Source: Vampirovibrionales bacterium (GTDB taxonomy: Bacteria > Cyanobacteriota > Vampirovibrionia > Vampirovibrionales > Vampirovibrionaceae). From it: a DNA stretch of 64,000 nt. Below, piece by piece: positions 5,182 through 36,288 of this stretch (position 1 is its first letter; each line of letters opens with the position of its first letter). A program made the position numbers and the translations under genes. Where the stretch lies: the NCBI GenBank assembly GCA_035285165.1, contig JAYKHP010000007.1:17380-81379 (forward strand), written 5' to 3'. Below the pieces are notes generated by a model, which was not told where the DNA came from, did not search any database, and saw only the letters and a list, made by a program, of their open reading frames with translations.

Positions 5182-6576
5182 TTAATAGCCGACTTTTTCG
5201 TCGACCAGTTCCCCAAATTCATCAATGAGCGCTTCTTTGACCAGCGATTGCTCTTCGGCCTCTTCGGGGATGGCTGACTCGGCGGGAAGCTTGGCATCGG
5301 GGAAGAATGCCTTGTGAATCGCGCGCACGGCACTGTCGGCGGCGGATTTTTCCACCAGGCAGCTAATCTTGATTTCACTGGTGGCAATCATCTTGATGTT
5401 GATGCCCGCCGTTGAAAGCGCCTGGAAGAAATCGGCGGCAATACCCGGACGGTCAATCATCCCCGCGCCCACAATGCTCACCTTGGCGATATCATCGTCC
5501 ACCAGGACGGCTGCGGCGCCCACCTTGTTCTTAACATCTTCCAGTATGCGTTTGCCATCGGCTAAATCGGTAGAGGGAATCGTAAAAGCGATGTCGTTGG
5601 TGGTGCCGCTGTGCTCACTGCCGAGCGACTGGATGATCATATCCACACTGATATTGGCATCGGCGAGGTTCCCAAAAATATCGGCAGCAACACCGGGCTT
5701 ATCGGGAACGCCTACAATGGCAAGCCGGGCCTGGCTTTTATCGCTGGCAACGCCGGTGACGGGATTAACACGCTCTAGAAATGAATGATCAACAATCATG
5801 GTGCCGGGATCCTCTAAGTGAAACGTACTGCGCTTGCTGAGGGTGACATTACCGCGCTTGGCCAGCTCAACCGCTCTGGGGTGAAGCACTTGTGCCCCGA
5901 CGCGAGCCAACTCCATCATTTCGATGTAGGAAATCTGATCCAGCTTGACGGCTTCGGGAACCACGCGCGGGTCGGTGGAGTAGACACCGCGAACATCCGT
6001 GTAGATATCGCAGCGCTCCGCGCCCAGGGCGCCGGCCAGGGCCACGGCTGAAGTATCCGAGCCGCCACGGCCAAGCGTCGTGGTTTCGCCCAGGCTGTTC
6101 TGGCCCTGAAAACCACTGATGATGACAATCTTGCCACCATTTAACTGGTTGATGATATGCTCGGTTTTGATTTCCAGAATGCGTGCGCGGTTATAGAGGT
6201 CTTCTGTGTGAATCCCCGCCTGGGGGCCACTGAGGCCGATGGCGGGATAGCCCATCGAATTAAGCGCCATCGCCATTAATGCGGTTGTCACCATCTCGCC
6301 CGTTGCCAAAAGCGCGTCGTATTCCCGGCCCGAGGGGTTTTCGGTTAATTGATTGGCCAGATCCACGAGGTGATCGGTGGAGTGTCCCATCGCTGAAACC
6401 ACCACCGCCACATGGTAGCCCTGCTCCGCCGTGTCTGCGATAATGCGCGCCACGCGCTTGATACGCTCGGCGTCCCCCACGGAGGTGCCGCCGAATTTCT
6501 GCATAATCAGCGGTTTCTTAAGACGCGGATTTTTGGGAGCTGCGGGAACTTGGGATTGAGTCGCCGTGTTTGCCAT
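5182..6576 (-). CDS. lysC: Aspartate kinase
   Basis: MQKFGGTSVGD... kinase N-terminus, amino-acid-kinase domain and two ACT-like regions. Start placed at MANTATQ (6576), because the track ORF start at 6672 adds a non-conserved leader. Confidence 0.9.
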   Translation of the reverse strand: MANTATQSQVPAAPKNPRLKKPLIMQKFGGTSVGDAERIKRVARIIADTAEQGYHVAVVVSAMGHSTDHLVDLANQLTENPSGREYDALLATGEMVTTALMAMALNSMGYPAIGLSGPQAGIHTEDLYNRARILEIKTEHIINQLNGGKIVIISGFQGQNSLGETTTLGRGGSDTSAVALAGALGAERCDIYTDVRGVYSTDPRVVPEAVKLDQISYIEMMELARVGAQVLHPRAVELAKRGNVTLSKRSTFHLEDPGTMIVDHSFLERVNPVTGVASDKSQARLAIVGVPDKPGVAADIFGNLADANISVDMIIQSLGSEHSGTTNDIAFTIPSTDLADGKRILEDVKNKVGAAAVLVDDDIAKVSIVGAGMIDRPGIAADFFQALSTAGINIKMIATSEIKISCLVEKSAADSAVRAIHKAFFPDAKLPAESAIPEEAEEQSLVKEALIDEFGELVDEKVGY

Positions 6577-6780
6577 AGGGTGGGGACTTTCCGTAAGATA
6601 GCAATGGTATTCGAATATCTCATGCGTACCATAGCAACGACAAGCCCTGATCGCAAGTGTCAAGGCCCTCAAGTGATGAAGGCCTGCAAGTGATCAAGCC
6701 GCTATTGTGACAATGTTTGTAAACCTTGCACTGGGCAAGCGAAAATGGGCAAGAGAAAATGAAAGAGAGACGAGCAGAAA

Positions 6781-7242
6781 ATGAAAATCGTAAGGCAATT
6801 CAAACCGTCGGATGTTTATATGGGCCGCTTTGAGTATGGCAGCGATCTGATCACGTCGCTTGAGGCGTTTTGCGGCGAGCATCATATCCGCCACGCCTGG
6901 GTGCAGGTGATTGGCGCGCTGAGTAAGGCTGCGATTGGATATTACGAGCAAGCGCGACATGACAAGTCGATGCGGGATCGCTATGTCGTCAAGCAGCTCA
7001 GTGGCGAGTATGAAATCATCAGTTGCTCGGGCAACATCAGTGTCAAAGATGGCAAGCCTTTCGGCCATTTGCACATCGCGGTGTCGGACACGCAGTATCA
7101 AACCTTTTCGGGCCACCTGATGCCAGGCTCGGTCGAACTTTTCGCAGGCGAGTTTGTGATTCAGAGCTTTGAAAAAGCCGTCCCCTCAGACCCCGATCTT
7201 GACCGCTGCCCGGATGAGGTTACCGGCTTGGCGCTGTGGTAA
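6781..7242 (+). CDS. PPC/DUF296 domain protein (putative DNA-binding)
   Basis: 153 aa. The motif HLHIAVSDTQYQTFSGHLMPG matches the PPC (DUF296) family signature. Confidence 0.6.
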   Translation: MKIVRQFKPSDVYMGRFEYGSDLITSLEAFCGEHHIRHAWVQVIGALSKAAIGYYEQARHDKSMRDRYVVKQLSGEYEIISCSGNISVKDGKPFGHLHIAVSDTQYQTFSGHLMPGSVELFAGEFVIQSFEKAVPSDPDLDRCPDEVTGLALW

Positions 7243-7260
7243 TTTTTTTTGGTGTAAATT

Positions 7261-14607: not shown

Positions 14608-16236
14608 TTAAATCAGCGAGTTTTCTTCGGGCTCGTCCTCCAGATCCAGTTCGTCCGGGGCGTGTTCGTCATGTTTACCATGACTGGCGAAATGCTTTTC
14701 CAGTTGATCCAGTAAGAAACGCTTGGCTTTCTTGTCCCAAACGAACACCAGGTGCTTGTGGCCCTGGCCCTCCACAACAGAAAGCGGCAGGGAGGAGATA
14801 TTGCGTAGGTCAACAACAGGCCCTCGGAACCTTGAAATCCAGATGGGTTCTCGATCCTCAGGCGGCAGATACATCGGCTTGGGCTTGACGATGGTTTCCT
14901 CAAATCCGAAATCAAACGACAGCCCGCGTTGTTCGTAGTGCTTGCGCAACGCGATGACAATATCCCCCAGTTCGGCCAGGTGGCTGCCCTGGCTATATTT
15001 ATGAAGGTCAATGAACTTGAAGAGATCATGCGTCATCATCCGCTCGGCCAATTGGCGCAGCAGCGGGTCTTTGTTGGCATCAGTCGTCCAGGTGTTCAGC
15101 ACTTCCCAGAGATAGCAGTCATCCATTCTCAGATAAGACTGACACGTGAGGGAATGGCCGTCGCTCATCAGGGTATAAAGCTCGTTTGCCGGATGGCCGA
15201 TGTCAATTCCTTCTTCGCGGGCGGCTTTGAAGCGTTTCAGCACACAGTGCAGGATGGCTTCGGACGCTTTATCAAGCGAATGTAGCGCCATTTTATAGGC
15301 CTGAAAGCGTCCGAAGAGATAATGCTCAATGGCTGGGATGGCTTCTTCTCGAACGGCGATAACAGGCTGGCCCTGTGGCGTTTTGGCAATCACCAGGTTG
15401 GCGATGATCCGCTGGGCTTCAACGCGGCCATATTGTACGCCCAGGTAATGGCTGTCGCGCTGGAGATAATCCAATCTGTCCATGTCGAGCTGGCTGGATA
15501 CCAGATAAGCCAGGTAATGCTTGTTGCTGCGCTTTTTATAGCCTTGTTCAGCGCCAGGGGGCTTGGTGCTTTGTCCAGGTGGGTCTTCCCCCATAAATTG
15601 CAACAAGGCCTGGGGTAGTTGCGGGTCGTATTTTTGCCATATCTGGCAAAGTTCCTTATCCTCGCTTAAAATGCGACCGTTCCAGTAATGGTCATGGCTT
15701 AACCCGCGATCTTTAAGCTCCAGGATATCCTCAAGCGTGTGCGACAGAGGTGTATGGCCGATGTCGTGAATAAGAATGCTGACTAGTAAAAGCCGTTCGA
15801 CGGAAATGCCCGTATCTGTCTTGCTGCCTTCGGTGTCCGTTAGATGAAACGTGCTTTGAAGCACCTCACGCGTGTCGGGGTCGTTATTGAAATGCTCGAT
15901 GGCTTTCATCATCAGGTGAACGGCGCCAAGGCTGTGGATGAAGCGCGAGTGGGTGGCGCCTGGAAAGACGAATTCAGCCAGGCCCATCTGCTTGATTCTG
16001 CGCAGGCGCTGAAACGCGCTGGTGTTCATGATGTCCAGCAACAGCGCATGGGTTTCGTCGCGCCGGTCAAACTGGATCATCCCGTGAATCGGGTCAGCCA
16101 GGGACATCCGCTGTTGCATGCGGACATTGGGCTTGTGATGGCTGGAACTTGGATGTGAAGGCTTGGTGGCCATAAAGTCTGAAAGACGCCCCTCTGTTGT
16201 CCAAAACGAAAAATTCCTTACCGTCATTCCCGCCAA
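14608..16236 (-). CDS. HD-domain dNTP triphosphohydrolase-like protein (dGTPase/Dgt family)
   Basis: DPIHGMIQF...FQRLRRIKQMG...THSRFIHSLGV...LIHDIGHTPLSH motifs; acidic C-terminal tail. Start uncertain: alternative ATGs at 16173 and 16119. Confidence 0.75.
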   Translation of the reverse strand: MAGMTVRNFSFWTTEGRLSDFMATKPSHPSSSHHKPNVRMQQRMSLADPIHGMIQFDRRDETHALLLDIMNTSAFQRLRRIKQMGLAEFVFPGATHSRFIHSLGAVHLMMKAIEHFNNDPDTREVLQSTFHLTDTEGSKTDTGISVERLLLVSILIHDIGHTPLSHTLEDILELKDRGLSHDHYWNGRILSEDKELCQIWQKYDPQLPQALLQFMGEDPPGQSTKPPGAEQGYKKRSNKHYLAYLVSSQLDMDRLDYLQRDSHYLGVQYGRVEAQRIIANLVIAKTPQGQPVIAVREEAIPAIEHYLFGRFQAYKMALHSLDKASEAILHCVLKRFKAAREEGIDIGHPANELYTLMSDGHSLTCQSYLRMDDCYLWEVLNTWTTDANKDPLLRQLAERMMTHDLFKFIDLHKYSQGSHLAELGDIVIALRKHYEQRGLSFDFGFEETIVKPKPMYLPPEDREPIWISRFRGPVVDLRNISSLPLSVVEGQGHKHLVFVWDKKAKRFLLDQLEKHFASHGKHDEHAPDELDLEDEPEENSLI

Positions 16237-16279: not shown

Positions 16280-17293
16280 TCAGCCTTGATCCATCGTTTG
16301 TTTGGCGCGCGGGTGCGCCTTGAGATAAGCGCTTCTCAACCGTTCGGTGGAGAGATGGGTGTAAATCTGCGTGCTGCGAATGCTGACGTGGCCCAGCAAC
16401 TCTTGCACCACCCGCAGGTCAACCCCCTTATTCAGCAAATGAGTGGCAAACGTGTGGCGAAAGACGTGGGGGTGGATATGTCGTCCAAGCCCGGCCGCCT
16501 CGGCCAACTGATCCAGAATGCGCCGGATACTCCTGACATTCAAGGCTTCGCCCCGGTAATTGAGAAACACAGGATGCTTGCTGGCAAAGGGCTTCTGAGA
16601 CAAGTCGGCCCAGACGCTTTTGTAAAGCATCAGCGCCTTAAGCGCCTTCTGGCTGACAAAGGCGATGCGCTCGCGGGCGCCTTTACCAAAAATCCGCAAC
16701 TCGCCCTCTTCCCAGTTGATCTGTTCAAAGGTCAGTTGCGCAAGCTCGCTGACGCGGATGCCGGATGAAAAAAGCGTTTCGACAATCGCCAGGTTGCGAA
16801 GCGCCAACGATTGCTCGCTATTGGACGTTTCTGACAGTTTTTCCGCATGCCTTATTAAGCCCTGGATATCGTCCACGTTTAAAAACTCAGGCAGCTTCCT
16901 GGGCAACTTGGGGCGATGGAAACGCAAGGGCAAAGCGTCGGGCGTAAAAATGCCTTCTTTCATCAGGTATTTGAAATACGTTTTAAGGCAAGAGAGTTTT
17001 CGGGCCAACGTGCTTCTGGAAAGTCCCTTTTGTCCCAGCCAGGTGATGAATTGTCCTGGCATGTCGTTTAAAAGCGTTGGATTTGAAAGTGCAGGATTGC
17101 CAGCGGACGGAAGTGCTTCAATACTGGACAGCCACTGGCAGAACAGGGCCAGATCCGATTGATAGGCCCGAATCGTTTGTGACGAAAGGTTGCGGTTAAC
17201 CGCCAAGTGCGACAGGAAAGGCTCGACGCTTTCAAGCAGGCGTTGCCGGTTGGCGCCATCCAGAGGGAGTCGGGAACTCATGGGCTTTATCAC
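16280..17293 (-). CDS. Tyrosine site-specific recombinase, XerC/XerD family
   Basis: 337 aa; the C-terminal catalytic motifs HPHVFRHTFATHLL and LGHVSIRSTQIYTHL are typical of XerC/D. Confidence 0.85.
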   Translation of the reverse strand: MIKPMSSRLPLDGANRQRLLESVEPFLSHLAVNRNLSSQTIRAYQSDLALFCQWLSSIEALPSAGNPALSNPTLLNDMPGQFITWLGQKGLSRSTLARKLSCLKTYFKYLMKEGIFTPDALPLRFHRPKLPRKLPEFLNVDDIQGLIRHAEKLSETSNSEQSLALRNLAIVETLFSSGIRVSELAQLTFEQINWEEGELRIFGKGARERIAFVSQKALKALMLYKSVWADLSQKPFASKHPVFLNYRGEALNVRSIRRILDQLAEAAGLGRHIHPHVFRHTFATHLLNKGVDLRVVQELLGHVSIRSTQIYTHLSTERLRSAYLKAHPRAKQTMDQG

Positions 17294-19314: not shown

Positions 19315-19377
19315 CTTGCGCTAGGGTTTTCGCATGGGATGCTTTGCCCTACTCAGGCTTTGTCTGATAATGAAAAG

Positions 19378-21492
19378 ATGGCCATTCACCCTTCTCCCAT
19401 CCCCATTCAGAAAATTGACGCGGTCACGCTGTCTTACCTGGCGCGGGAGCTTCGCGGGATGCTTTTGGGTGCTCGCGTCAGCCGGATTACACACCCGGCG
19501 GCTAAGGAGTTTGTCATTTCCTTTTGGGGTCATGCGCATCCGGCAAATGCCGAAGATGCCGCCTTGCTGATTCCTCGCGGAGAGCTGAATCACTTTTACA
19601 TTAACCTTCACCCGGAATTTTGCTACGCGCTGTTGCTTGAGCCGGGCGAAAAAGACGCGCTGATTAAGACGACGCTGGATCATCCCACGGCGGTTTGTAT
19701 GCTGCTGCGAAAACACCTGGGTAACGCTACGGTGAGCGATGTTTTCGTACTGCCACATGAACGCGTCTTGAATCTTTGTTTTGAAAATTTCAACGAACTC
19801 GGTAACCGCGTCAAGCTGATTCTGTCCATCGAGCTGATGGGTAAGACGAGTAACATGGTGCTTTACGATGAATTGCAGGAAGAGATTCTCGCCCTGTCGC
19901 ATTCGGTGAGCGAAAAAATGAGCCAGTATCGTGAGATGACCGTGGGCAGCACCTATATCCCCCCACCCTTAACGCGCGGTAAAACGCCGATCAGCCAATT
20001 TAGCGATGCGGAATTTGAAGCACTTCTGACAACCGTTTCAGATACGGAGATAAACGCAAACACGCTTGCCGAGGCACTGGTTCAACGCCTGGCCGGTGTT
20101 GGTAAAATGATGCTTCGACAGGCGATTGAGATTTCCGAAAAACAAGCCGCTCAAAATAAAGCCAATAAACCCCAGGACGATTCCGTTTCTGATTTTTCAA
20201 AACGACTTTATCAATGCCTGATTCAGGTATCTCCGGATGTCTTGCAAGGTGTTTCATCAAATCGATTACAAGCTGATCACATTGCGCCGCGGATTTTATT
20301 TTCCAGTCCGTCTGTTAAAAACAAATCGCAAACGCCAATCCCGGCCGAGTTCTCACTCTTGCCTGATCCTGGGCGGGATTTATTGGATGATGCCCAAGCC
20401 TTTTCAACTGTGCATGAGATGCTGCGCGCGTATTTTCTGCCCAGAACCGCAGCCCTAAGGCTTGAAGAGTTCAGAACCCGCCTTCTTGCCAGTGTTGAAA
20501 CCGCCCAACGGCGACGCCTCAAGCGTGAGCAATCCCTCTCGCCGGATGCGGGGGATATCGAAGTTTTGCAACATGCGGGGCATTTAATGCTGGCTGCCGC
20601 CAACAGCGGAGGACTTCAGGGGGAACGGCCCGCAAAAGGGCTGGCGCTTGTGACGGATTATCAAAGCGGGGAAGAAATTTCGCTAGAGGTTGACCCGTCG
20701 CTAAGCTGGATGGAAAATGCCGAACGGTATTATCGACGCGCAAAAAAAGCCAAGGCCCGGCAGGCGCAATTTGTTTTGCAACAGGAGCAGTTGTCGCGCG
20801 AGGCGGCGTATCTGGAGGAGCTTGCCCTGATGATTGCGCAGGCCGATACCCTCAAAATGTTGCAGGTGATGGCCGATGAACTGGATACGTTTTTACGGGA
20901 GAAAAAGCAGAAGGCAGAATCACTGCCAAGTGCTGAAGGACTTAATCGTAGTTCAGGCAATCGAAAAAGTTTGAATTTCAAGCAAAAAGCCGCTAAGTCA
21001 CAAAAAAAACCGAAGCAGAAGGCGAGTCAGGGGAAAACGCCTCCCGGCTTGATAACGCTGCCGCTTGAGGCGGGAGGGCAGATCCTGGTGGGGCGTAGCG
21101 GCCAGGCCAACGGGGAGCTGGTGGGCCGATTGGGAAAACCGAATGACTGGTGGTTCCATGTTCACCAGATGCCGGGCAGCCATGTGGTTTTAAGACACGG
21201 AGAGTTAAAACATATGGGATTCAATCACGATCAAAAAGGAAACGATGAACCGGAAGATGCTTTAACCGCCAACTTGCCGCTTGATCCACAACAGCTTCTG
21301 CTGGCTGCCAATCTGGCGGTTTATTTCAGCACCGCGCGCGAAAGCAAAAACGTGCCGGTCATTTATACCCAAATCAAGCACGTTCGAAAAATTCCAGGGT
21401 CTTATCCCGGCCATGTGACCTACAAGCACGAGCAAAGCGTTTTTATTACCGTCGATGAGGCATTGATAAAATCCGCGCTGGGAATTGGCTAA
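19378..21492 (+). CDS. rqcH: RqcH/FbpA family (NFACT-N plus NFACT-R/DUF814) ribosome quality control homolog
   Basis: ~705 aa. The N-terminus has an NFACT-N-like fold, the middle is a coiled-coil, and the C-terminus carries DWWFHVHQMPGSHVVLRH (DUF814). Start at MAIHPS (19378). Confidence 0.75.
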   Translation: MAIHPSPIPIQKIDAVTLSYLARELRGMLLGARVSRITHPAAKEFVISFWGHAHPANAEDAALLIPRGELNHFYINLHPEFCYALLLEPGEKDALIKTTLDHPTAVCMLLRKHLGNATVSDVFVLPHERVLNLCFENFNELGNRVKLILSIELMGKTSNMVLYDELQEEILALSHSVSEKMSQYREMTVGSTYIPPPLTRGKTPISQFSDAEFEALLTTVSDTEINANTLAEALVQRLAGVGKMMLRQAIEISEKQAAQNKANKPQDDSVSDFSKRLYQCLIQVSPDVLQGVSSNRLQADHIAPRILFSSPSVKNKSQTPIPAEFSLLPDPGRDLLDDAQAFSTVHEMLRAYFLPRTAALRLEEFRTRLLASVETAQRRRLKREQSLSPDAGDIEVLQHAGHLMLAAANSGGLQGERPAKGLALVTDYQSGEEISLEVDPSLSWMENAERYYRRAKKAKARQAQFVLQQEQLSREAAYLEELALMIAQADTLKMLQVMADELDTFLREKKQKAESLPSAEGLNRSSGNRKSLNFKQKAAKSQKKPKQKASQGKTPPGLITLPLEAGGQILVGRSGQANGELVGRLGKPNDWWFHVHQMPGSHVVLRHGELKHMGFNHDQKGNDEPEDALTANLPLDPQQLLLAANLAVYFSTARESKNVPVIYTQIKHVRKIPGSYPGHVTYKHEQSVFITVDEALIKSALGIG

Positions 21493-21503
21493 GCTCATTG
21501 CTT

Positions 21504-21590
21504 TTTTTACGACAACTCTGGCGAGTCTGTTTGTTTTATGACAACTCTGGCGAGTCTGTTTTTTTACGACAACTCTGGCGAGTCGTCTTC
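21504..21590. repeat. Three tandem ~29-bp copies of tt(t)TA[C/T]GACAACTCTGGCGAGTC..., of which the last copy is the 3' end (including stop) of the 1198-aa gene
   Basis: Read directly: copies at about 21508-21533, 21537-21561 and 21566-21590. The reverse complement of copy 3 encodes ...EDDSPELS followed by the stop. Confidence 0.8.
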
Positions 21591-24500
21591 GTAAATCATG
21601 ACGTCGGGTTCGGGTGGGAGGCGGCGATCGAATTGCGCGTAATTCAGCCTTGAAACCCTTGGGCCATAGCCTTTTTCATTAAGAGGAGAATCCGCCTGCT
21701 CTTGATCCTGAGGGTTTTGACTGCGGCTTACGGTAGCCTCTTCCTGAATCTCGCCGGTCAAGTCCAGCGATGGCATATCAACGGAACGGGCTTCAAATGC
21801 CTGGTGGCGGCTTTCCTCATGCAGATCGGGAGCTGGATAACTGCCGTTATCATTCCCGTTATTATGTTCGTTATTATCCATGTTGAAACGTGCCCGAATC
21901 ACGTGCGGGGAGGTATATTGCGTTAAATGCAACGGCTGGGCTTCGTCAATGCGACGCTTGATCTTGCGAATCGCCATCTGGCAAACACTGCTGATAATCT
22001 CGCTGCTGCCCACCGCTTGCAGGTCAGCCAGCATCGTTAAAGCCCGATCAGTCGAGCCGATTTGTCCAAGGCTTCTCACGCAGGCCCACAGCAACGCTGG
22101 CGGCATGGTTGCTCTTGTCGCCTGGGGATAAACCTGCGTTGAAATGGCTGCCAGGATGGCATCTTCCGCCTGCCTTGCCGGACGTTTGCCAAGCGTTCGC
22201 ACCACCGCGATTTTCACGTCCTCATCCTCCTCAGGATCAAGCAACGTATTGGCCAGCGCGTGAAAAGCACCCTGCTCATCCATAAAGCTGAGCGAGTCGG
22301 CGGCCAGCGCGCGAATCGCCGGATCGCTGTCCTGGTGTAATCTTGCAATCAGGGCCTTAATGGCGTCTGGCCCCGGGTATTTCTGTAAGCCGACGCAGGC
22401 GTATTTTCGGATTTCGGGCACCGGATCGTCAATCGCATCCAGTAAGCTGTTTTGCACAAAAGGCGATTCTCGATCATTAGACGGATTGTGATCATCTGCC
22501 AGAAACTTGATGGAGCAGAGGCGTACGCTTTCATCCGCGTCTGATAGGCCCTTGATGAACACGGCGGTCAAATCGTGCGACCAGCGGTATTTTACCAACG
22601 CCTGGTATGCCTGGGCGCGAATGGCCTCATATTCATCGTCCAATGCTTCCAACATCGATTCCACAAAGCGCTTGTGAAAGTCCGGCTCGGTGGTCTTTTG
22701 GCTAATAAGCGCAAGGTTTTGCGCCGCGTATTCGCGCACCATCGTATCCATGTCTTTGAGGGCGGTAAACAACGCCTGCCTGGATTTTTCCGAATCGATC
22801 AGCGCCAGGTTATTCAGCGCTGTCACTCGAATGGCGGGCTGTTCGGATTTCAGGCTGTCGATAAAAAGCCTTTCGAGAAATTCGGGCATATCCGTATTGC
22901 CAAGCGAATGGCAAAGCGAAAGGACTTCTTGGGTCTTTGCCCGATCCAGCTCGCCTGTTTGAATCGAAAGGGGAATGATTTTTTTCAGGTAACGCAGTTT
23001 TTCTTCCGTCGGTAAATCAGCCTCGACGCTTGCGGTTTTGCTTTCCAGAAACTCGCGGTCAATGCGGTTCTGGAAAATAAACCACTTGTCGGCAAACGGC
23101 GTCTGGTTGGTGACGGCGGACTTGCTTTTGGCGAAGGGCTGAATGAACTGGTACTGCGCCAGCCGTTGCAGCACCTCATACACAAACGTTTCACCAAGCT
23201 GCTGCGAGAGGTAAACTTCCGAAATAGCGTCACCCGCCTTGAAGGGCTGACCGCCAAATGTTTTTAGCAAGGCCGCAATGGCCTTTTCCAGTTTTTCCTC
23301 CTGCTGGAGAAACGCCAATTTGATGCGCGTGTATGACAGTTCAAGCAGGTCTTCGGGTTGATCGATGCAAAGCCGGTTATAGAACTCCAGATCCAGGTGC
23401 CGGATGCGATTGGCGTGTGAACGTTCAATGAGATAGCGCGCCGCGCGGTTATGCCAGTAAGGGTTTCCTTGTGTCAGGGTGTAAACCTGTAAGTGGACGT
23501 TTTCGTCAAATTCAAGCCCGGCGCTATGGAAGCGCATGCGGAAAAGTTTTCTGGCTTGCGCCTCGTCCAGGGGGGCAAGCAGGAGCTTGGTTCTAAATTG
23601 GTGGAAAAGGTTTCCCCCGAGGCTATTGCTCTGCCCCAGCGTATCGCAGCCTAGTAGCAGCATCAGGCGGGTTTGTTGAGGGATGCCGGGGCGTCCCCCC
23701 TCTCGATTGTCTCCCGTTTCATTCAACAGGTCATACAGCATTTGTTTCAGTTCATTTTGCTGCGGCTGGGGAATATCGCTAACCCCTTCCCAGTGATCGA
23801 AGAGCAACAGCAGCGAGCTGTCGATGCTGGCAATGCCCTGGTTGATGAAGTCGAAAACCTGTTGCAGATGGGCGCTCATTTCGGCTACCGGCCCATGATC
23901 CTTTTGCTTAGGTGTTCTGGCTTTTTTCTTTGCAAGATTTGAAGAAAGAGCCGAGGCGGGTTCGGCATCCGAATCAGTATGCTGATCAGCGCTGTCCGTT
24001 TCTTGCTCCTGGTTCTGCAAAGTGTTCTGAAAAAACTGGGGACGCTTGGCTTCCCAGTCTTGGGTATAATTCAGATCAAACAAACGGTTGCCGTCCTTGA
24101 TTTCATCCGAAAGGGCAAACGCGGTTTTCAGACGGGGGTCGATGGGGTTGGCCAGTTGGCAGGCCAGCACCACCCAGGGGTTGAGGATAAATTTTACCAG
24201 CTTGTCGATGTGCGTGTTCAAGGACAACCTGAGTTTTTTCATGGTGGGCAGCGAATTTTTAATGGCCTTGGCCAGTTGTTCTTCGCTTGAAATTTTCGGG
24301 GGCGAGGATTTTTGGGAAGTTTTTGCCGGAGTGCTTTTTTCCGTATTACTTTTCTCAAGCCCACTTTCAAGCCCGTTTTCAAGATGAATAGCATCCTGAA
24401 GCTGTGCCAGCGATACGGCGCGGATGAGATCCTGGGTTTCCCAAACCAGCCCGATGTTGGCCAATTCTTCGTTAATGGCGATTAGTGCTTCCTGTATCAG

Positions 24501-25160
24501 CCGATCCGCATCCTGACGAAGGCTGTCGATTAAGGTTACATAGAAATGCTGTGGCGTTTTGAAATGATGCAGCCTGCAGTCAATGATGCGGGAATAAACC
24601 GACTGGCGAACCAGTTCGATAAAGCTGTCGATCAGGGCGGTTTTCCCCATGCCGGTATCCGCTGTCAGCAGCACCGCTTTTAGTTGTCCCTGGCGAGAGA
24701 GGTGAATCAGCTTGAGCAGTTGGCGCAATTCTGTTTTTCGTCCCACGATTTCGACGGTTTCAACAAGGTAAGCGTCGTTCGTGGCCGCAGCGCCCGCATA
24801 AGGCGAGGAGGCCGCCAACTCTCCCGGCAGCATCGAGGCAGTGTCGTTTCGGTTTGAAAATCCCATCCCTGAAAGTCCAAGCCCGGAGAGCCCCAGATTT
24901 TGGCTGAAAAGGCTTTTTTCCGCTGTCGCCGACGGCAGGGGAACGAGGTGCTCAAGTCCATGGGGCTCTGGTTGAGAACGGCTCTTATCGGCACCCATGG
25001 CGTTGATTTTCTTACCTGTATCCGTGTTACCGCTTTGAGAAGGTGCGGGAGAGTCCTGCTGCATTAGCGTAGGAGAGCTTGCGGGTTGCCGATTGAGCGC
25101 TTTTGGGTTGGAAGGGGTTTCTGAAAAGCCGGTCTGATCGGTCGGATAAGAAGAACTCAT
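21564..25160 (-). CDS. Large P-loop NTPase (AAA_16/STAND-like) with a disordered S/P/Q-rich N-terminus and a C-terminal array of HEAT/PBS-lyase-type repeats
   Basis: 1198 aa. Walker A is LLTADTGMGKTALIDSF, candidate Walker B is SLLLLFDHWEG, there is a long helical middle, and there are at least 6 HEAT-like repeats (PAIRVTALNNLALI, DTMVREYAAQNLALI, YEAIRAQAYQALVKY, ESVRLCSIKFLAD, VPEIRKYACVGLQKY, DPAIRALAADSLSFM, EDVKIAVVRTLG). Confidence 0.7.
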   Translation of the reverse strand: MSSSYPTDQTGFSETPSNPKALNRQPASSPTLMQQDSPAPSQSGNTDTGKKINAMGADKSRSQPEPHGLEHLVPLPSATAEKSLFSQNLGLSGLGLSGMGFSNRNDTASMLPGELAASSPYAGAAATNDAYLVETVEIVGRKTELRQLLKLIHLSRQGQLKAVLLTADTGMGKTALIDSFIELVRQSVYSRIIDCRLHHFKTPQHFYVTLIDSLRQDADRLIQEALIAINEELANIGLVWETQDLIRAVSLAQLQDAIHLENGLESGLEKSNTEKSTPAKTSQKSSPPKISSEEQLAKAIKNSLPTMKKLRLSLNTHIDKLVKFILNPWVVLACQLANPIDPRLKTAFALSDEIKDGNRLFDLNYTQDWEAKRPQFFQNTLQNQEQETDSADQHTDSDAEPASALSSNLAKKKARTPKQKDHGPVAEMSAHLQQVFDFINQGIASIDSSLLLLFDHWEGVSDIPQPQQNELKQMLYDLLNETGDNREGGRPGIPQQTRLMLLLGCDTLGQSNSLGGNLFHQFRTKLLLAPLDEAQARKLFRMRFHSAGLEFDENVHLQVYTLTQGNPYWHNRAARYLIERSHANRIRHLDLEFYNRLCIDQPEDLLELSYTRIKLAFLQQEEKLEKAIAALLKTFGGQPFKAGDAISEVYLSQQLGETFVYEVLQRLAQYQFIQPFAKSKSAVTNQTPFADKWFIFQNRIDREFLESKTASVEADLPTEEKLRYLKKIIPLSIQTGELDRAKTQEVLSLCHSLGNTDMPEFLERLFIDSLKSEQPAIRVTALNNLALIDSEKSRQALFTALKDMDTMVREYAAQNLALISQKTTEPDFHKRFVESMLEALDDEYEAIRAQAYQALVKYRWSHDLTAVFIKGLSDADESVRLCSIKFLADDHNPSNDRESPFVQNSLLDAIDDPVPEIRKYACVGLQKYPGPDAIKALIARLHQDSDPAIRALAADSLSFMDEQGAFHALANTLLDPEEDEDVKIAVVRTLGKRPARQAEDAILAAISTQVYPQATRATMPPALLWACVRSLGQIGSTDRALTMLADLQAVGSSEIISSVCQMAIRKIKRRIDEAQPLHLTQYTSPHVIRARFNMDNNEHNNGNDNGSYPAPDLHEESRHQAFEARSVDMPSLDLTGEIQEEATVSRSQNPQDQEQADSPLNEKGYGPRVSRLNYAQFDRRLPPEPDVMIYEDDSPELS

Positions 25161-25361
25161 AAGCGTTTTTCAATACTTTCTCTCTCTCGCTACTGCTTGA
25201 AGTCGTTTTACACATCCTGTTGTGCCCAGATATCCCTCCAGATATCCCTGGAGACATTATATAATAGCATTGCCCCCATATCAAAACGTGGCGTTGCCTT
25301 GATAAGGTATTGTTATCAACGATGACAGTTTCGGCAAACCGTCACGCTATTTAAGAAAGAC

Positions 25362-26018
25362 ATGCCAATGTATTCAACGCGTTCTTTGTTTAAAGCCCTC
25401 TTGGCTTTGCTGTTGTTTTTACCTGTTTCGGCGGCGTTTGCCGAAGCAGGTAAGCACAATGCTCCTCCGCTTCGTTCAGCGTCAGATATCAGCGATTCGC
25501 CATCCAGTAACCCCTACCTGTCGTTACGTATACCAAAGCCCGGTTCTGTGGCGCCTGGTATTCAGGTAAAGACGGCGGAGGGCACGACGCTTACGCTGAC
25601 CCAGTACAAGGGAAAAAAGAATGTGGTGCTGGTGTTTTACCAGGGGCATTTCTGCTCGGTCTGTGCCCATCAGCTTGCCAATCTCCAATCCCACTACGGC
25701 GATTTTAAGCTGCAGGAAGCTGAAATTATCGCAATCAGTGCGGATAGCCAATACCTGGCCCTCAGAACACAAGGAGAGCTAGGTCTTAGCTTTCCGGTTG
25801 TGCCGGATTCGGCTAAATCAATCATTGCGCGCTATGGCGTTGCCAACGTGGCCAAGCAGGGAATCGCCTGGCCGTCGGCTTTTATCATTGACAAGCAGGG
25901 CAAGCTTCGCTTTAGCTATGCCGATTCTCGTGGACATCGTTTGCACAGCAACGAGCTGCTGTCCCAACTCTCCAATATTACGGGAAAACCTTCGCCAAGC
26001 TTGGGTTATGAAGAGTAA
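25362..26018 (+). CDS. Secreted peroxiredoxin/thiol peroxidase (AhpC-TSA/redoxin family)
   Basis: Signal peptide (LLALLLFLPVSAAFA) and a redoxin fold with FCSVCAHQ. Confidence 0.7.
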   Translation: MPMYSTRSLFKALLALLLFLPVSAAFAEAGKHNAPPLRSASDISDSPSSNPYLSLRIPKPGSVAPGIQVKTAEGTTLTLTQYKGKKNVVLVFYQGHFCSVCAHQLANLQSHYGDFKLQEAEIIAISADSQYLALRTQGELGLSFPVVPDSAKSIIARYGVANVAKQGIAWPSAFIIDKQGKLRFSYADSRGHRLHSNELLSQLSNITGKPSPSLGYEE

Positions 26019-26146
26019 TTTATATTAAGAAATTCAATCGTAAATAAAACCAAAACGAATTAGTATCGCTGGAACATTCACAATGTCATTATCAAAAATA
26101 TTAATGTCGTACCGGAAGCTGGTTTAAATCAGTCGTGAAAAACCGA

Positions 26147-26461
26147 TTAATTAATCGGGCTGTGTGTAGGCTCTGACTCTAGTTTTTCAAGTAAACCACT
26201 CTCAAGATGTTTTTTGGCCCATTTCAGAACAATGCGTTGCTCGTCTTTGTTCTGGAAAAGATCTTCGTAATAAAGAGAACGAAGCGAGTCGTAGCTTGTA
26301 TTGAAAAATTCGGCCAATTGGCGAAGATTGGTTGGGTTGGGGACGCGTTGCGCTTTTTCAAAGCGCATGATTTGCACGCGAGATATCCTAGTGCCTTTTT
26401 CGATGTCAAGCAATGAACGCTCTCCGCGCAATTCACGCAGTTTTCGGCTTAAGTGCAGCAA
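26147..26461 (-). CDS. XRE-family helix-turn-helix transcriptional regulator
   Basis: 104 aa; N-terminal HTH (LRELRGERSLLDIEKGTRISRVQIMRFEKAQRVPNPTNLRQLAEFF). The 16-bp palindrome CCGATTAATTAATCGG (26143-26158) overlaps the stop and is followed on the minus strand by T5, so it probably acts as its terminator. Confidence 0.7.
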   Translation of the reverse strand: MLHLSRKLRELRGERSLLDIEKGTRISRVQIMRFEKAQRVPNPTNLRQLAEFFNTSYDSLRSLYYEDLFQNKDEQRIVLKWAKKHLESGLLEKLESEPTHSPIN

Positions 26462-27031
26462 TTTGACAGATTCCTTTAAGTATGTTAACGTATGCCTTGT
26501 TACCGTAAAAGAAACGGTGATGACTCACTCACAGCAGTTATAGGGTTATATAGTCATGTCGTTGCCTGTAGAAGAATGCTGTGGTTATATTCTGGAAATA
26601 GAGACTCTTAGAAGCATTCCCGCTTTTTTAACGGCTGAAAGCTTTTAAAGATTCTATTGAAACAATAATATATATTGTAAATACAATAATACCATACTGA
26701 CTAGGGTAGACTACATCACCCAAAAGAGTGTTTCATCTACCATTCCTCGGAATGAGTTTCATGTAAGCCAAAGTATCATTGAGAAAACGCAAGTAGTAGT
26801 ACGGAAGATATCGTGCAGATACAAGTTTTTATACACAGTACATCTTTAGTGTTGAGTGTATCAGGGTTATACAAGCTTGGCAATCCCTCTCTTGCCCCGT
26901 ACCGCAATTAAGCCTGATTGTTTGCTTTCCGTCTTGTTACTTTTTCTGTTACAAAATTGTGTTTTATTATTTCCACCACAGTATCTAACCAGTATAATTA
27001 CGTCGATTTACTTAGTTAATGTCGTTCATTC

Positions 27032-27063
27032 AGCCCTTTCACCTTTGAAAGGGCTTTTTTTTT
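27032..27063 (+). terminator. Strong Rho-independent terminator (10-bp perfect stem AGCCCTTTCA/TGAAAGGGCT, 4-nt loop, T9)
   Basis: Read directly. It closes a ~570-nt ORF-poor, AT-rich stretch downstream (on the + strand) of the XRE gene's divergent promoter. Confidence 0.8.
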
Positions 27064-27230
27064 GATAACGCTGTAAATTGTCCAACGCGCAGGCTTTTAC
27101 GGCCCCTGATTCGTCCGGCATTTAATATAACTCATCCCGCCCATTCTCATTTTGCCATTTTAAGACTAAGTTACTTAAAGCTAACCTGTCTTATTTGCAT
27201 TTTTATTCACAAAGAAAGGTAGGTCTCAAA

Positions 27231-28322
27231 ATGACCCAAACGCAAACCAGTCCGCTTAAACAGGAATCATTGGGCGTTCAAGCCAAAGGTTATGCTGCGA
27301 TGACCCCAAAAGCGCCTTTAAAGCCTTTCTCGTTCGAGCGACGAAAGCCCAATGCCAACGACGTGTTAATTGATATCCGCTATTGCGGGATTTGCCATTC
27401 GGACATCCATCAGGCTCGTGATGAATGGGGTGATGCCCTCTTCCCGATGGTGCCGGGTCACGAGATTGTCGGTATCGTTTCTGAGGTGGGCGAAAAGGTT
27501 ACGCGCTACAAGGTGGGCGATCGCGTGGGCGTTGGCTGCTTTGTCGATTCCTGCCGCCAGTGCGAACCTTGCCGTCATGATCTTGAGCAGTATTGTGAAA
27601 ACGGGATGACCGGCACGTACAACGCAATGGAACGGGATGGGGTGACACCCACGTTTGGCGGCTACTCCAACCACATCGTCGTCAACGAGGATTACGTGTT
27701 GGGAATTCCTGACAATCTCTCTCTTGATGCCGCCGCCCCCCTGCTTTGTGCTGGCATTACGTTGTATTCTCCCCTGATGCACTGGAAAGCGGCTCCCGGT
27801 AAGAAAGTGGCGATTATCGGCCTGGGAGGACTTGGCCATATGGGGGTTAAGCTTGCCCATGCACTTGGGGCGGAAGTTACCGTTTTAAGCCAGTCATTGA
27901 GAAAACAGGAAGATGCTAAGCGCTTTGGGGCGGATCATTTTTACGCCACCGCCGATCCGGCAACTTTTGAAAAACTGCAGGGTCATTTCGATCTGATCAT
28001 CAACACGGTGTCAGTCGATATGGACTGGAACGAGTACCTGAACCTGCTGAAGCTAGACGGCACGATGGTGGTGATTGGCGTTCCCGAAAAGCAGGTGCCG
28101 CTTGGCGCGTTTCCGCTTCTTTTAAAACGTCGCAGCCTGGCGGGCTCGCTAATTGGCGGGATTAAGGAAACACAGGAGATGTTGGATTTCTGTGGCAAGC
28201 ATAATATCACCTGCGATATCGAGTTGATTCCGATTCAGCAGGTGAATGAAGCTTATGAGCGCGTGATCAAAAGTGATGTCCGCTACCGCTTTGTAATTGA
28301 TATGGCCTCGCTGGAGAAGTAA
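27231..28322 (+). CDS. Zinc-dependent alcohol dehydrogenase, cinnamyl-ADH/YahK-like NADPH aldehyde reductase
   Basis: GICHSDIH catalytic Zn motif, structural Zn cysteines ([15 protein letters not shown]) and a GLGGLGHMG Rossmann motif. Start at MTQTQ (27231) with AAAGAAAGG upstream; the track ORF start at 27195 is less likely. Confidence 0.85.
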
Positions 28323-34626: not shown

Positions 34627-36288
34627 ATGGATATCCTGAACTTGGGGCTTGCGTTCCTTGAGGGCATGGCGCTGATCGCTTCTCCTTGCGTGCTGCCAAT
34701 CCTGCCCATCGTGCTTTCTGCAGGGCTTGATAGCGGTAAGTGGCGTCCCTATGGCTTAATAACAGGCTTTATTTTTTCTTTCTGGACGTTTACGCTTTTA
34801 TCAAGAAAACTGGTGAGCGTTCTGGGTGTAGATCCTGGTCTTATTCGGAATATTTCCTTTGCCGTTCTGTTCATCTTCGGCCTGGTTCTCTGTTCGGAAT
34901 TCTTGTCAGAAAAATTCACTGCCCTCAGCGAGCGTCTTGTTCGCATGGGCCAGTCGCTCAGCAGCCAATTATCGGCGAGAGAATCAGAATCCAAGCGATC
35001 GGGATTTTTTAGCGGCTTCTTGCTGGGCATTTTTATCGGATTAATCTGGAGTCCTTGCGTGGGCCCCATTATCGCGATTGTTCTGGTACAGGTGATTCGC
35101 CAGGAAACCGACCTGGCCTCGGCGCTTTTACTGGCGGCATTCAGTATCGGGGTCAGTGTTCCCATGTTGTTAATTACCCTGGGAGGGAAAAAGGTGATGG
35201 CGAAATTGGATTTCTTCAAGCGTAAAGGCGCGCTTGTCCGTAAAATACTGGGCATTATCATTCTTGTGACGGTTCTGCTAACGGCGGGAAGCGAGTGGTT
35301 CAACCTAACGCCTCCGTCTTTTGCCGCTAGTCCAAATATTAAAATACTGGATGGCCTGGCAAACCCTTCCCCGGCCCCTGAATTTAAAGGGATTTCCGCC
35401 TGGATAAACAGCAAGCCGCTCACGATGGCACAGCTTAAGGGCAAAGTCGTACTGGTGGATTTCTGGACGTATTCCTGCGTGAACTGTATTCGCACGTTGC
35501 CGCACATTACGGCCTGGGACAAAAAATACCGTGGCAAAGGGCTGGTGATTGTCGGCGTGCATTCCCCGGAATTTGAGTTTGAGAAAAAATTGTCCAACGT
35601 GCAGATGGCCGTTAAAAAATACGGCATCCAGTATCCCGTGGCGCTGGATAATAACCTGGATACTTTTACCGGTTTTGAAAACCGCTACTGGCCTGCACAT
35701 TACCTGATTGATAAAAACGGCAGAATCGTTTATACCCATTTTGGCGAAGGCAAGTATGACGTTACTGAAAGCAATATTCGCGCCTTTTTGGGAATTGCCG
35801 GCGCCGCCGCTCCCGATACCAACGCCCGTGGTTTTGGCGCTTATGATCAAACCCCCGAAACGTATCTTGGGTATGCCCGCGCCGAGCATTTCGACAGTCC
35901 TGAGGGGTTGCAGAAAAACACGACTGCCACGTACACTTTTCCCAAAACCTCGCCGATGCATGCCTGGTCACTGTCCGGAAAATGGGCCGTGGGCGCCGAG
36001 AAAATTAGCTCGCGCGAGAAGGGGGCTTCCTTAAGGCTGCGTTTTACGGCGAAAAAAGTCTTTCTGGTGTTGGGAAGCGATCGCGGCCAGCCTGTCCAAG
36101 TCTCGCTGTGGCTGAATGGCAAACTGTTAAAAAATAATGCCGGTAAGGACATCAGCCATAATCGCCTGAGCGTTAAGGAGCATCGCCTGTACGAGCTGGT
36201 GAATCAGGAAACAAGTAAGCCCGGCTGGCTTGAAATCAGAAGCCACGAGCCCGGCCTGTCGGCTTACGCTTTTACGTTTGGATCTTAA
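34627..36288 (+). CDS. DipZ-like thiol:disulfide interchange protein: a CcdA/DsbD transmembrane domain, a thioredoxin domain and a C-terminal beta-rich (CBM-like) domain
   Basis: CcdA cysteines (SPCVLP in TM1 and WSPCVGP), a Trx motif WTYSCVNC, and a further ~170 aa C-terminal domain. Confidence 0.8.

Follow-up and report, generated by a model that had tools for sequence, protein, structure and literature searches.

The gene of interest lies in a 64,000-nucleotide stretch of a Vampirovibrionales bacterium genome (assembly GCA_035285165.1, contig JAYKHP010000007.1, positions 17,380–81,379), hereafter called the window. Open reading frame (ORF) analysis of the window reveals a 1198-aa ORF, running from ATG to stop, on the minus strand at 21564–25160. 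These coordinates and this length agree with an earlier sequence-only reading, made from the letters of the DNA, which had proposed the gene as a candidate signalling or defence ATPase. The encoded protein combines a P-loop NTPase with a C-terminal HEAT-repeat solenoid. A secreted redoxin is encoded directly upstream on the opposite strand, and a perfect 10-bp palindrome lies between the two genes. The results presented below are consistent with two main conclusions: (i) the protein appears to represent an uncharacterised family that is specific to Vampirovibrionales—predatory, non-photosynthetic relatives of cyanobacteria—and (ii) by sequence comparison, its gene behaves like a vertically inherited core gene of that order, and not like a mobile anti-phage gene.

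Domain architecture of the NTPase-HEAT protein

The gene and its parts are as follows (window coordinates, with residue numbers of the window protein).

21564–25160, minus strand: whole gene, encoding a 1198-aa AAA_16/STAND-like NTPase with HEAT repeats (ORF, Pfam, orthologs in Vampirovibrionales)
24804–25160, minus strand: N-terminal tail, aa 1–119, predicted disordered and lineage-specific (predicted local distance difference test score, pLDDT, <50; absent from 6 of 7 full-length close homologs)
24555–24803, minus strand: N-terminal half of the NTPase core, aa 120–202, comprising a GRKxELRQL helix, strand b1, Walker A, helix a1 and strand b2 (AAA_16 match, model)
24639–24662, minus strand: Walker A/P-loop, aa 167–174, A-D-T-G-M-G-K-T (family conservation)
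23895–24554, minus strand: helical insert between b2 and the Walker B strand, aa 203–422 (spacing, conserved residues, Pfam split)
23571–23894, minus strand: C-terminal half of the NTPase core, aa 423–530, comprising the Walker B strand, the sensor-1 strand and b5 'FRxKLLLxPL' (nSTAND1/ATPase_2 match in homologs)
23787–23813, minus strand: Walker B, aa 450–458, LLLLFDHWE; family motif hhhhD-x-W-[D/E] (family conservation)
23361–23570, minus strand: helical (lid) domain with GxP motif G565-N-P567-x-W569, aa 531–600 (motif conservation)
23031–23360, minus strand: predicted winged-helix domain, aa 601–710 (AlphaFold2)
21936–23009, minus strand: HEAT solenoid, aa 718–1075 (AlphaFold2 and Pfam)
21564–21935, minus strand: acidic, disordered C-terminal tail, aa 1076–1198 plus stop codon (pLDDT <50, net charge -13, weakly conserved)

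Two AlphaFold2 models were built. The first, from eight orthologs, was mediocre (pLDDT 64), and the second, from a 50-member family alignment, reached a mean pLDDT of 76.6 and a predicted template modelling score of 0.64, with an ordered core above 90. Residues 1–119, 274–285, 372–415 and 1077–1198 are predicted to be disordered in the second model. Pfam places AAA_16 at residues 138–234 (38.5 bits; gathering cut-off 32.6) and finds HEAT_2 (E 7e-27) and HEAT (E 2e-13), together covering residues 760–1050; the model assigns 20 helices, or approximately 10 HEAT hairpins, to residues 718–1074. Pfam and AlphaFold2 thus bear out the order of parts proposed by the sequence-only reading—disordered N-terminus, P-loop NTPase, helical stretch, HEAT array—including its C-terminal array, for which at least six repeats had been claimed. 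The 'long helical arm' of that reading exists as a helical stretch, but resolves into the GxP helical domain plus a predicted winged helix (a unit spanning residues 602–708, with helices at 602–669 and a hairpin at 673–675/693–696, pLDDT >90). Missing from the earlier description were the 120-aa disordered C-terminal tail and the gap of roughly 280 residues that separates the two Walker motifs and holds a conserved insert.

Motif conservation was counted over 50 family members. In the model, secondary-structure elements follow the order b1, Walker A (168–174), a1, b2 (191–194) and insert; downstream of the insert come the Walker B strand (450–454), b4 (499–506) and b5 (524–527). Both of the nucleotide-binding motifs that had been named beforehand, Walker A TGMGKT (D-T-G-M-G-K-T, 168–174) and an hhhhD Walker B (LLLLFD, 450–455), are present and conserved across the family: Walker A residues G170, G172 and K173 occur in 49, 50 and 50 of the 50 members, and Walker B residues D455 and W457 in 49 and 44. 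The position directly after D455 is variable, and the second acidic residue of STAND proteins is found at +3 instead (D/E458; 48/50). A degenerate Walker B, considered in view of the window protein's 'D-H' where close homologs have 'D-E', was dropped on account of this variable +1 position and the conserved acid at +3. Further conserved elements include S511 (47/50), the b5 'LxPL' motif, and the GxP motif 'GNPxW' (G565 49/50, N566 42/50, P567 42/50, W569 37/50). A sensor-1 arginine ends b4 in 39/50 members; the window protein carries Asp506 there, the sole Asp in that set, and its nearest relative, P0002, also has Asp at this position. The Vampirovibrio chlorellavorus ortholog has Arg506, and its Walker B reads D-E-W-D against D-H-W-E in the window protein. 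Lacking the sensor-1 arginine, the window copy may bind nucleotide yet hydrolyse it poorly.

The spacing between Walker A and Walker B is 169–371 residues in all 50 members. The model fills it with helices at 203–356 and 424–442, together with the disordered loops at 274–285 and 372–415, and three of its residues are kept in most members (W240 47/50, P328 48/50, W329 45/50). Pfam models break at the insert, with AAA_16 matching the Walker A half, and nSTAND1 and ATPase_2 matching from Walker B to the helical domain; the insert itself has no Pfam match and no PDB sequence match. On these comparisons, the predicted helical insert that splits the NTPase core is a family-defining feature, and a structural novelty without sequence relatives. 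Its position, between b2 and the Walker B strand, is presumably where initiator-clade AAA+ proteins carry their initiator-specific motif.

What kind of NTPase this is depends on the measure used. Across the 50 members, Pfam reports AAA_16 in 46, HEAT in 41, NACHT in 24 and nSTAND1 in 17, the last reaching 28.5 bits (P0004) and 33.1 bits (P0030) against a gathering cut-off of 27.1. The NOD (nucleotide-binding oligomerisation domain) profile has no match in a PDB sequence search; with the insert deleted, it matches Vps4 as one continuous domain (E 1.6e-4), and ClpB and Cdc6 weakly, which amounts to generic AAA+ similarity. Whole-protein fold searches were swamped by HEAT matches, and NOD matches surfaced only with the improved model. 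The best non-HEAT fold matches of the NTPase module are then Orc1/Cdc6 proteins (2qby_A, 1fnn_B, 7tjf_D) and SSO1545/ATPase_2 (2fna_B), with no Apaf-1, NLR, MalT or Avs structure among the best 60. By motifs and profiles (GxP, b5 'LxPL', sensor-1 Arg, AAA_16/nSTAND1), the module is STAND-like; by its predicted fold, it sits at the boundary between STAND and Orc1/Cdc6 proteins.

The STAND class of NTPases was reportedly delineated by Leipe et al. in 2004. With its AAA_16 and nSTAND1 branches (PF13191, PF20703), the present family shares Walker A and B, 'LxPL', the GxP domain, a predicted winged helix and the repeats, and most members have a sensor-1 arginine. It differs from them in that its core is split by an insert, its Walker B acid lies at +3, it carries neither effector nor adaptor, and it is inherited vertically as a core gene outside conflict systems. 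HEAT repeats are not among these differences: they had been proposed as a new STAND sensor type in place of TPR, LRR or WD40, but HEAT is already listed beside LRR, WD, ANK and TPR as a STAND repeat type (PMC4986451). With PBS-lyase-type HEAT proteins (YibA 1oyz, CpcE/CpcF 5n3u, NblB, alphaRep designs), the protein has the repeat type alone in common. Those proteins contain no NTPase, and the scores against their equivalog models are far below the cut-offs (NblB 29.8 bits vs 300, CpcE 24.1 vs 330).

Searches for additional functional parts were largely negative. Pfam detects no effector domain in the window protein, and none that recurs in the 50 members, as had been suspected from the sequence; nor does it detect a LuxR helix-turn-helix (HTH), SARP or other HTH output domain in either. 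No membrane segment is predicted in the window protein (top 19-residue Kyte-Doolittle mean 1.24). A KAP-type NTPase with membrane insertion was rejected for want of a hydrophobic segment and because the KAP_NTPase score of 17.4 bits falls short of the cut-off of 20. Across the family, all domains are neutral to acidic by net charge, a crude proxy; the winged helix has a median of -1 and the insert one of -7. Antisense ORFs within the gene have no Pfam match.

The two tails are less well conserved. The N-terminus had been described as about 130 disordered, S/P/Q-rich residues; disorder is indeed predicted for aa 1–119 (S 17%, A 11%, P 10%, Q 6%), but the tail is not a family feature. It shows no similarity to the tail of P0002 or to neighbouring genes, and its candidacy as a conserved signalling or amyloid motif was rejected on these grounds. 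At the other end of the protein, the final residues of the C-terminal tail vary by clade: 'L(K/D)(L/I)PFE' in Vampirovibrio chlorellavorus-like members, 'IDL(V/I)AVS' in a second clade and 'xKQLL' in a third. Judged by sequence, these clade-specific motifs may be docking motifs. A universal 'LPFE' docking motif was rejected, since only 3/50 members carry 'LPFE' and other clades differ. At the DNA level, a 29-bp tandem repeat (21502–21586; 2.9 copies, 92% match) takes up the space that separates the NTPase gene from the convergent rqcH gene, and recurs nowhere else in the window. Its third copy encodes the NTPase's last residues, D-S-P-E-L-S-stop, which means that the 3' end of the gene, stop codon included, has been triplicated.

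Distribution and inheritance of the family

A word-indexed search returned eight relatives, one of them named Vampirovibrio. When 1.84 billion cluster representatives (50% identity clusters) were searched exhaustively in HMMER with a profile of the NOD alone, 376 matched at E<=1e-3, of which 64 reached E<=1e-10 and 49 reached E<=1e-30. The family accordingly comprises about 64 clusters. Most family members are 900–1270 aa long; beyond the family, matches decay to generic P-loop similarity. All named members come from Vampirovibrionales, Melainabacteria or 'Cyanobacteria bacterium' metagenome-assembled genomes (MAGs). A scan of GTDB species representatives yielded 15 loci, including one from the V. 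chlorellavorus type strain; 13 carry the names Vampirovibrionales, Melainabacteria or the generic 'Cyanobacteria bacterium', and the other two bear cyanobacterial family labels. The latter two are MAGs labelled Oculatellaceae (L008, DATNQC010000356.1) and Coleofasciculaceae (L012, DATNPJ010000038.1) that hold a Vampirovibrionales-type redoxin/NTPase locus; each probably reflects an error of contig binning or labelling, or the co-assembly of a predator and the cyanobacterium that hosts it.

The earlier expectation of an undescribed family agrees with the state of the databases. No Pfam, NCBIfam or PADLOC model specific to the family was found. NCBIfam matches of the window protein are all sub-threshold, and fall on the HEAT region (PRK13800, NblB, CpcE) or on generic P-loops. 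The database names in use are generic or wrong ('oxidoreductase/HEAT', 'PDS5', 'Bacterial dnaA protein'), the first of them arising from a match to the HEAT tail of PRK13800.

Several lines of evidence bear on how the gene is inherited. Firstly, its flanks in the window are housekeeping in character: ClpB, an Xer-like recombinase, a SurA-like peptidyl-prolyl isomerase, CoaD, RqcH, a peroxiredoxin-like protein, an alcohol dehydrogenase (ADH), citrate synthase, PrpB, PrpD and aconitase. PADLOC finds no specific defence gene among these flanks (ClpB and an XRE HTH protein give generic AAA+ and HTH matches only), and nothing relevant in the NTPase-HEAT protein, whose sole match is a weak HEAT hit to HEAT_CxxC_PD-DEXK (E 3e-4). 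Searches of plasmids and viral contigs turned up no relatives. Secondly, the further two NTPase sequences have diverged, the further their citrate synthases (Spearman rho 0.87, 36 pairs) and adjacent redoxins (rho 0.85, 136 pairs) tend to have diverged as well; these pairs are non-independent, so that rho describes a pattern and not a probability. Such tracking fits vertical co-inheritance. Thirdly, orthologs resemble one another as closely in the HEAT domain (mean pairwise identity 0.54) as in the NTPase parts (0.48–0.61), which is unlike an arms-race receptor; tails and loops are unconserved.

The proposal of a defence ATPase is not supported by these observations: flanking defence genes and plasmid or viral relatives are lacking, synteny is kept, and divergence follows a housekeeping gene. 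The locus shows conserved core-genome synteny without association with variable regions; clear homology to a known housekeeping family, the other mark of a core protein considered at the outset, was not found. The convergence with rqcH that had been pointed out (NFACT/RqcH gene at 19339–21492) is real in the window, but is incidental: linkage to rqcH was rejected, as none of the rqcH, coaD and surA neighbours is conserved in any of the 22 related loci compared.

Three further observations concern the rest of the window. An Rfam scan of its whole length gave no match. A 542-aa ORF (14608–16236, minus strand) has no Pfam or PADLOC match and a weak dGTP-triphosphohydrolase-like one (E 4e-4); a Xer-type tyrosine recombinase gene (16280–17293) adjoins it. 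The GC content dips to 0.44 at 26001–28000, against ~0.52 elsewhere, a stretch that takes in the XRE gene and the first part of the zinc-ADH gene. Given that the ADH gene is not found in related loci, this dip may mark a recent insertion.

The divergent redoxin gene and the intergenic palindrome

The upstream side of the gene contains three features.

25256–25284, minus strand: sigma-70-type promoter for the STAND gene, TTGATA-17-TATAAT, 11/12 matches (promoter scan)
25256–25265, no strand: perfect 10-bp palindrome ATTATATAAT in the redoxin/NTPase intergenic region, with TATAAT on both strands (uniqueness, conservation)
25362–26018, plus strand: secreted CxxC thioredoxin-fold protein (AhpC/TSA, Prx/ResA-like) with signal peptide (translation, Pfam, NCBIfam, PDB relatives)

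The redoxin carries an F-C-S-V-C motif, and its PDB relatives include ResA, AhpE and 2-Cys peroxiredoxins. A homolog of it lies directly upstream of, and divergent to, the NTPase gene in 20 of 22 related loci, while both outer flanks change. The pairing is retained even at L023, where the NTPase member is only ~20% identical.

The -10 element of the NTPase gene lies inside the palindrome. ATTATATAAT occurs once in the window, and exactly once in 16/24 related loci—among others at L001 9826–9835, L002 9245–9254 and L014 5898–5907—always 5' of the NTPase gene and with unconserved flanks. In loci with gene calls, 48–166 nt separate it from the start codon of the NTPase gene downstream. Since each of its strands reads TATAAT, the palindrome could serve divergent transcription of both genes or act as an operator; ATTATATAAT is, in other words, a candidate bidirectional -10 element or operator. 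Directly downstream of the -10 element lies an exact 12-bp tandem duplication (25226–25249; CCAGATATCCCT twice on the plus strand, AGGGATATCTGG on the minus strand). It was rejected as a conserved promoter feature, being absent from all other loci.

The palindrome also bears on the choice of start codon. An in-frame stop lies four codons 5' of Met1, alternative methionines occur at 33, 55, 99 and 110, and an identical database protein is annotated from Met55. In the window, the palindrome is 96 nt 5' of Met1, within the range seen elsewhere, which mildly favours Met1 over Met110. Met1 is the likely translation start.

Other genes near the redoxin were recorded. A gene for a 104-aa XRE-type HTH protein (26147–26461, minus strand) adjoins it in the window and is also found in L001 (8611–8931); in L002 and L007, the slot of the XRE gene is occupied by one for a 146-aa cyclic-nucleotide (cNMP)-binding protein. 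Either protein might in fact be what regulates the redoxin and NTPase genes. Nine kb away, a 553-aa DsbD_TM + Redoxin + Thioredoxin_10 fusion (34627–36288, plus strand), a membrane thiol-reductant transporter, could supply electrons to secreted redoxins, including the one paired with the NTPase. At L006, the one close homolog locus without the redoxin, the NTPase gene is followed on the same strand by a TPR + Peptidase_C14 (caspase-like) gene (5889–7256), and further on by a response regulator of the GerE type. In the genome paper on V. chlorellavorus, superoxide dismutases and KatG are treated as oxidative-stress defences; a search of its text for HEAT, peroxiredoxin and thioredoxin found none of these terms (PMC4451040).

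Candidate roles of the protein

The reading that we favour, with somewhat better than even confidence, is that the protein is a soluble, effector-less P-loop NTPase switch or scaffold, specific to Vampirovibrionales, vertically inherited, and co-regulated with envelope redox defence. Under this reading, (i) the NTPase would cycle between nucleotide states that control self-association, as in other STAND/AAA+ switches, (ii) the conserved HEAT solenoid would bind a conserved endogenous protein or ligand, as opposed to fast-evolving invader proteins, and (iii) the output would be partner recruitment or scaffolding, perhaps mediated by the insert and by the variable disordered tails. The third step is suggested by the lack of an enzymatic effector and of a DNA-binding domain. 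The protein would be expressed together with the envelope redoxin: the shared promoter architecture suggests co-expression, and with it a role that is probably in envelope or oxidative-stress housekeeping, or in a life-cycle response.

A number of points weigh against this reading. It draws on architecture and genomic context throughout. Two to three loci (L006, L018, L024) have no adjacent redoxin. The redoxin adjacency may reflect only a shared promoter or gene-order inertia, and ATTATATAAT may merely be an unusually well-kept -10 element. Direct physical partnership is unlikely, given that the redoxin is exported and the NTPase has no membrane segment. Sensing through the protein's own thiols is likewise unlikely, there being no strongly conserved cysteine (the best occurs in 28/50 members); as no cysteine is more than 56% conserved, thiol-based redox sensing by the NTPase was rejected.

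Among the alternatives, the strongest is a role in building a structure specific to Vampirovibrionales (e.g., envelope, motility or predation apparatus), as an ATP-driven assembly factor or as a scaffold; redoxin adjacency would then mean a shared promoter region and nothing else. Lineage-restricted distribution and core-gene behaviour would suit such a factor, as would the generic protein-binding capacity of HEAT solenoids; the clade-specific motifs of the disordered tails could dock its partners, and secretins, pilins and flagellar genes are among the neighbours in several loci. Those neighbours are unconserved, however, whereas the redoxin is kept through multiple rearrangements, and we regard this role as reasonable but of fairly low probability. 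Less probable still, and at odds with all of the contextual tests, is an immune sensor resembling NLRs, as in Avs or bNACHT. Its HEAT array would detect a protein from a phage or another invader, upon which oligomerisation would lead to abortive infection via an unrecognised effector (e.g., the insert or the disordered tails). The protein does share with antiviral STANDs an NTPase switch and a C-terminal repeat 'sensor' on one large polypeptide, its Walker B-to-helical half matches nSTAND1, and a TPR-caspase gene lies downstream at L006. The nSTAND1 clade was first described in counter-invader conflict systems, which contain effector and adaptor domains (PMC8195603). The family has, by contrast, no recurrent effector, no relevant PADLOC match in protein or flanks, no defence-island or mobile context, a conserved locus with divergence that tracks a housekeeping gene, and a 'sensor' conserved as much as its NTPase.

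A comparably low probability attaches to a MalT/LAL-like transcription regulator, whose winged helix would bind the palindrome and control the redoxin and its own gene upon ligand binding by the HEAT array. Divergent genes around a perfectly conserved palindrome are typical of regulator-target pairs; the NOD is of the AAA_16 type found in LAL regulators, which are chromosomal and serve housekeeping signalling, not immunity; and the closest folds to the module that includes the predicted winged helix are those of DNA-binding Orc1/Cdc6 proteins. Nevertheless, the DNA-binding output domain of MalT/LAL proteins is lacking, HEAT stands in place of their TPR-like sensor, and the neutral to acidic charge of the winged helix, the insert and all other domains argues against DNA binding. 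The palindrome, moreover, is AT-only and coincides with a consensus -10 element, and the XRE-type HTH gene (window, L001) or the cNMP-binding gene (L002, L007) beside the redoxin offers a more conventional candidate. Least probable of all, and by our estimate very much so, is a DNA-acting role as a divergent AAA+ protein of the Orc1/Cdc6 or DnaC/TnsC kind, with the insert as a hypertrophied initiator-specific motif. The predicted AAA+, lid and winged-helix fold is shared with Orc1/Cdc6 initiators, but the orc1/cdc6 profile (TIGR02928) gives E 0.007 and 15.3 bits against a cut-off of 181.3. The lid has a STAND-type GxP where the sensor-2 arginine would be, b4 ends in a STAND-type arginine, a HEAT solenoid is added, the domains are acidic or neutral, and no replication or transposition context is seen.

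An extension of the switch or scaffold reading, which we put forward as a speculative and rather improbable idea, is that the NTPase-HEAT protein and the redoxin form a two-gene module, specific to Vampirovibrionales and run from one invariant, palindromic, bidirectional promoter, in which an effector-less NLR-like switch with a new insert domain would sense a host- or prey-derived or oxidative cue, and gate a life-cycle or envelope-protection response of these predators. If true, the module would be a 'housekeeping NLR' outside immunity, and its mode of output would be new.

In summary, a STAND-like NTPase with repeats is a known combination, and what is distinctive here is the insert, the absence of an effector, the core-gene status and the promoter-level link to a redoxin. 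The organisms are difficult to grow and have no genetic system, which limits the practical value. Recognition of the family corrects the misleading database names 'oxidoreductase', 'PDS5' and 'dnaA', and its pairing with a redoxin through an invariant palindrome provides a concrete, testable regulatory hypothesis. More broadly, an effector-less core gene of one poorly studied order is a counter-example to the focus on mobile anti-phage functions in bacterial STAND/NLR-like proteins.

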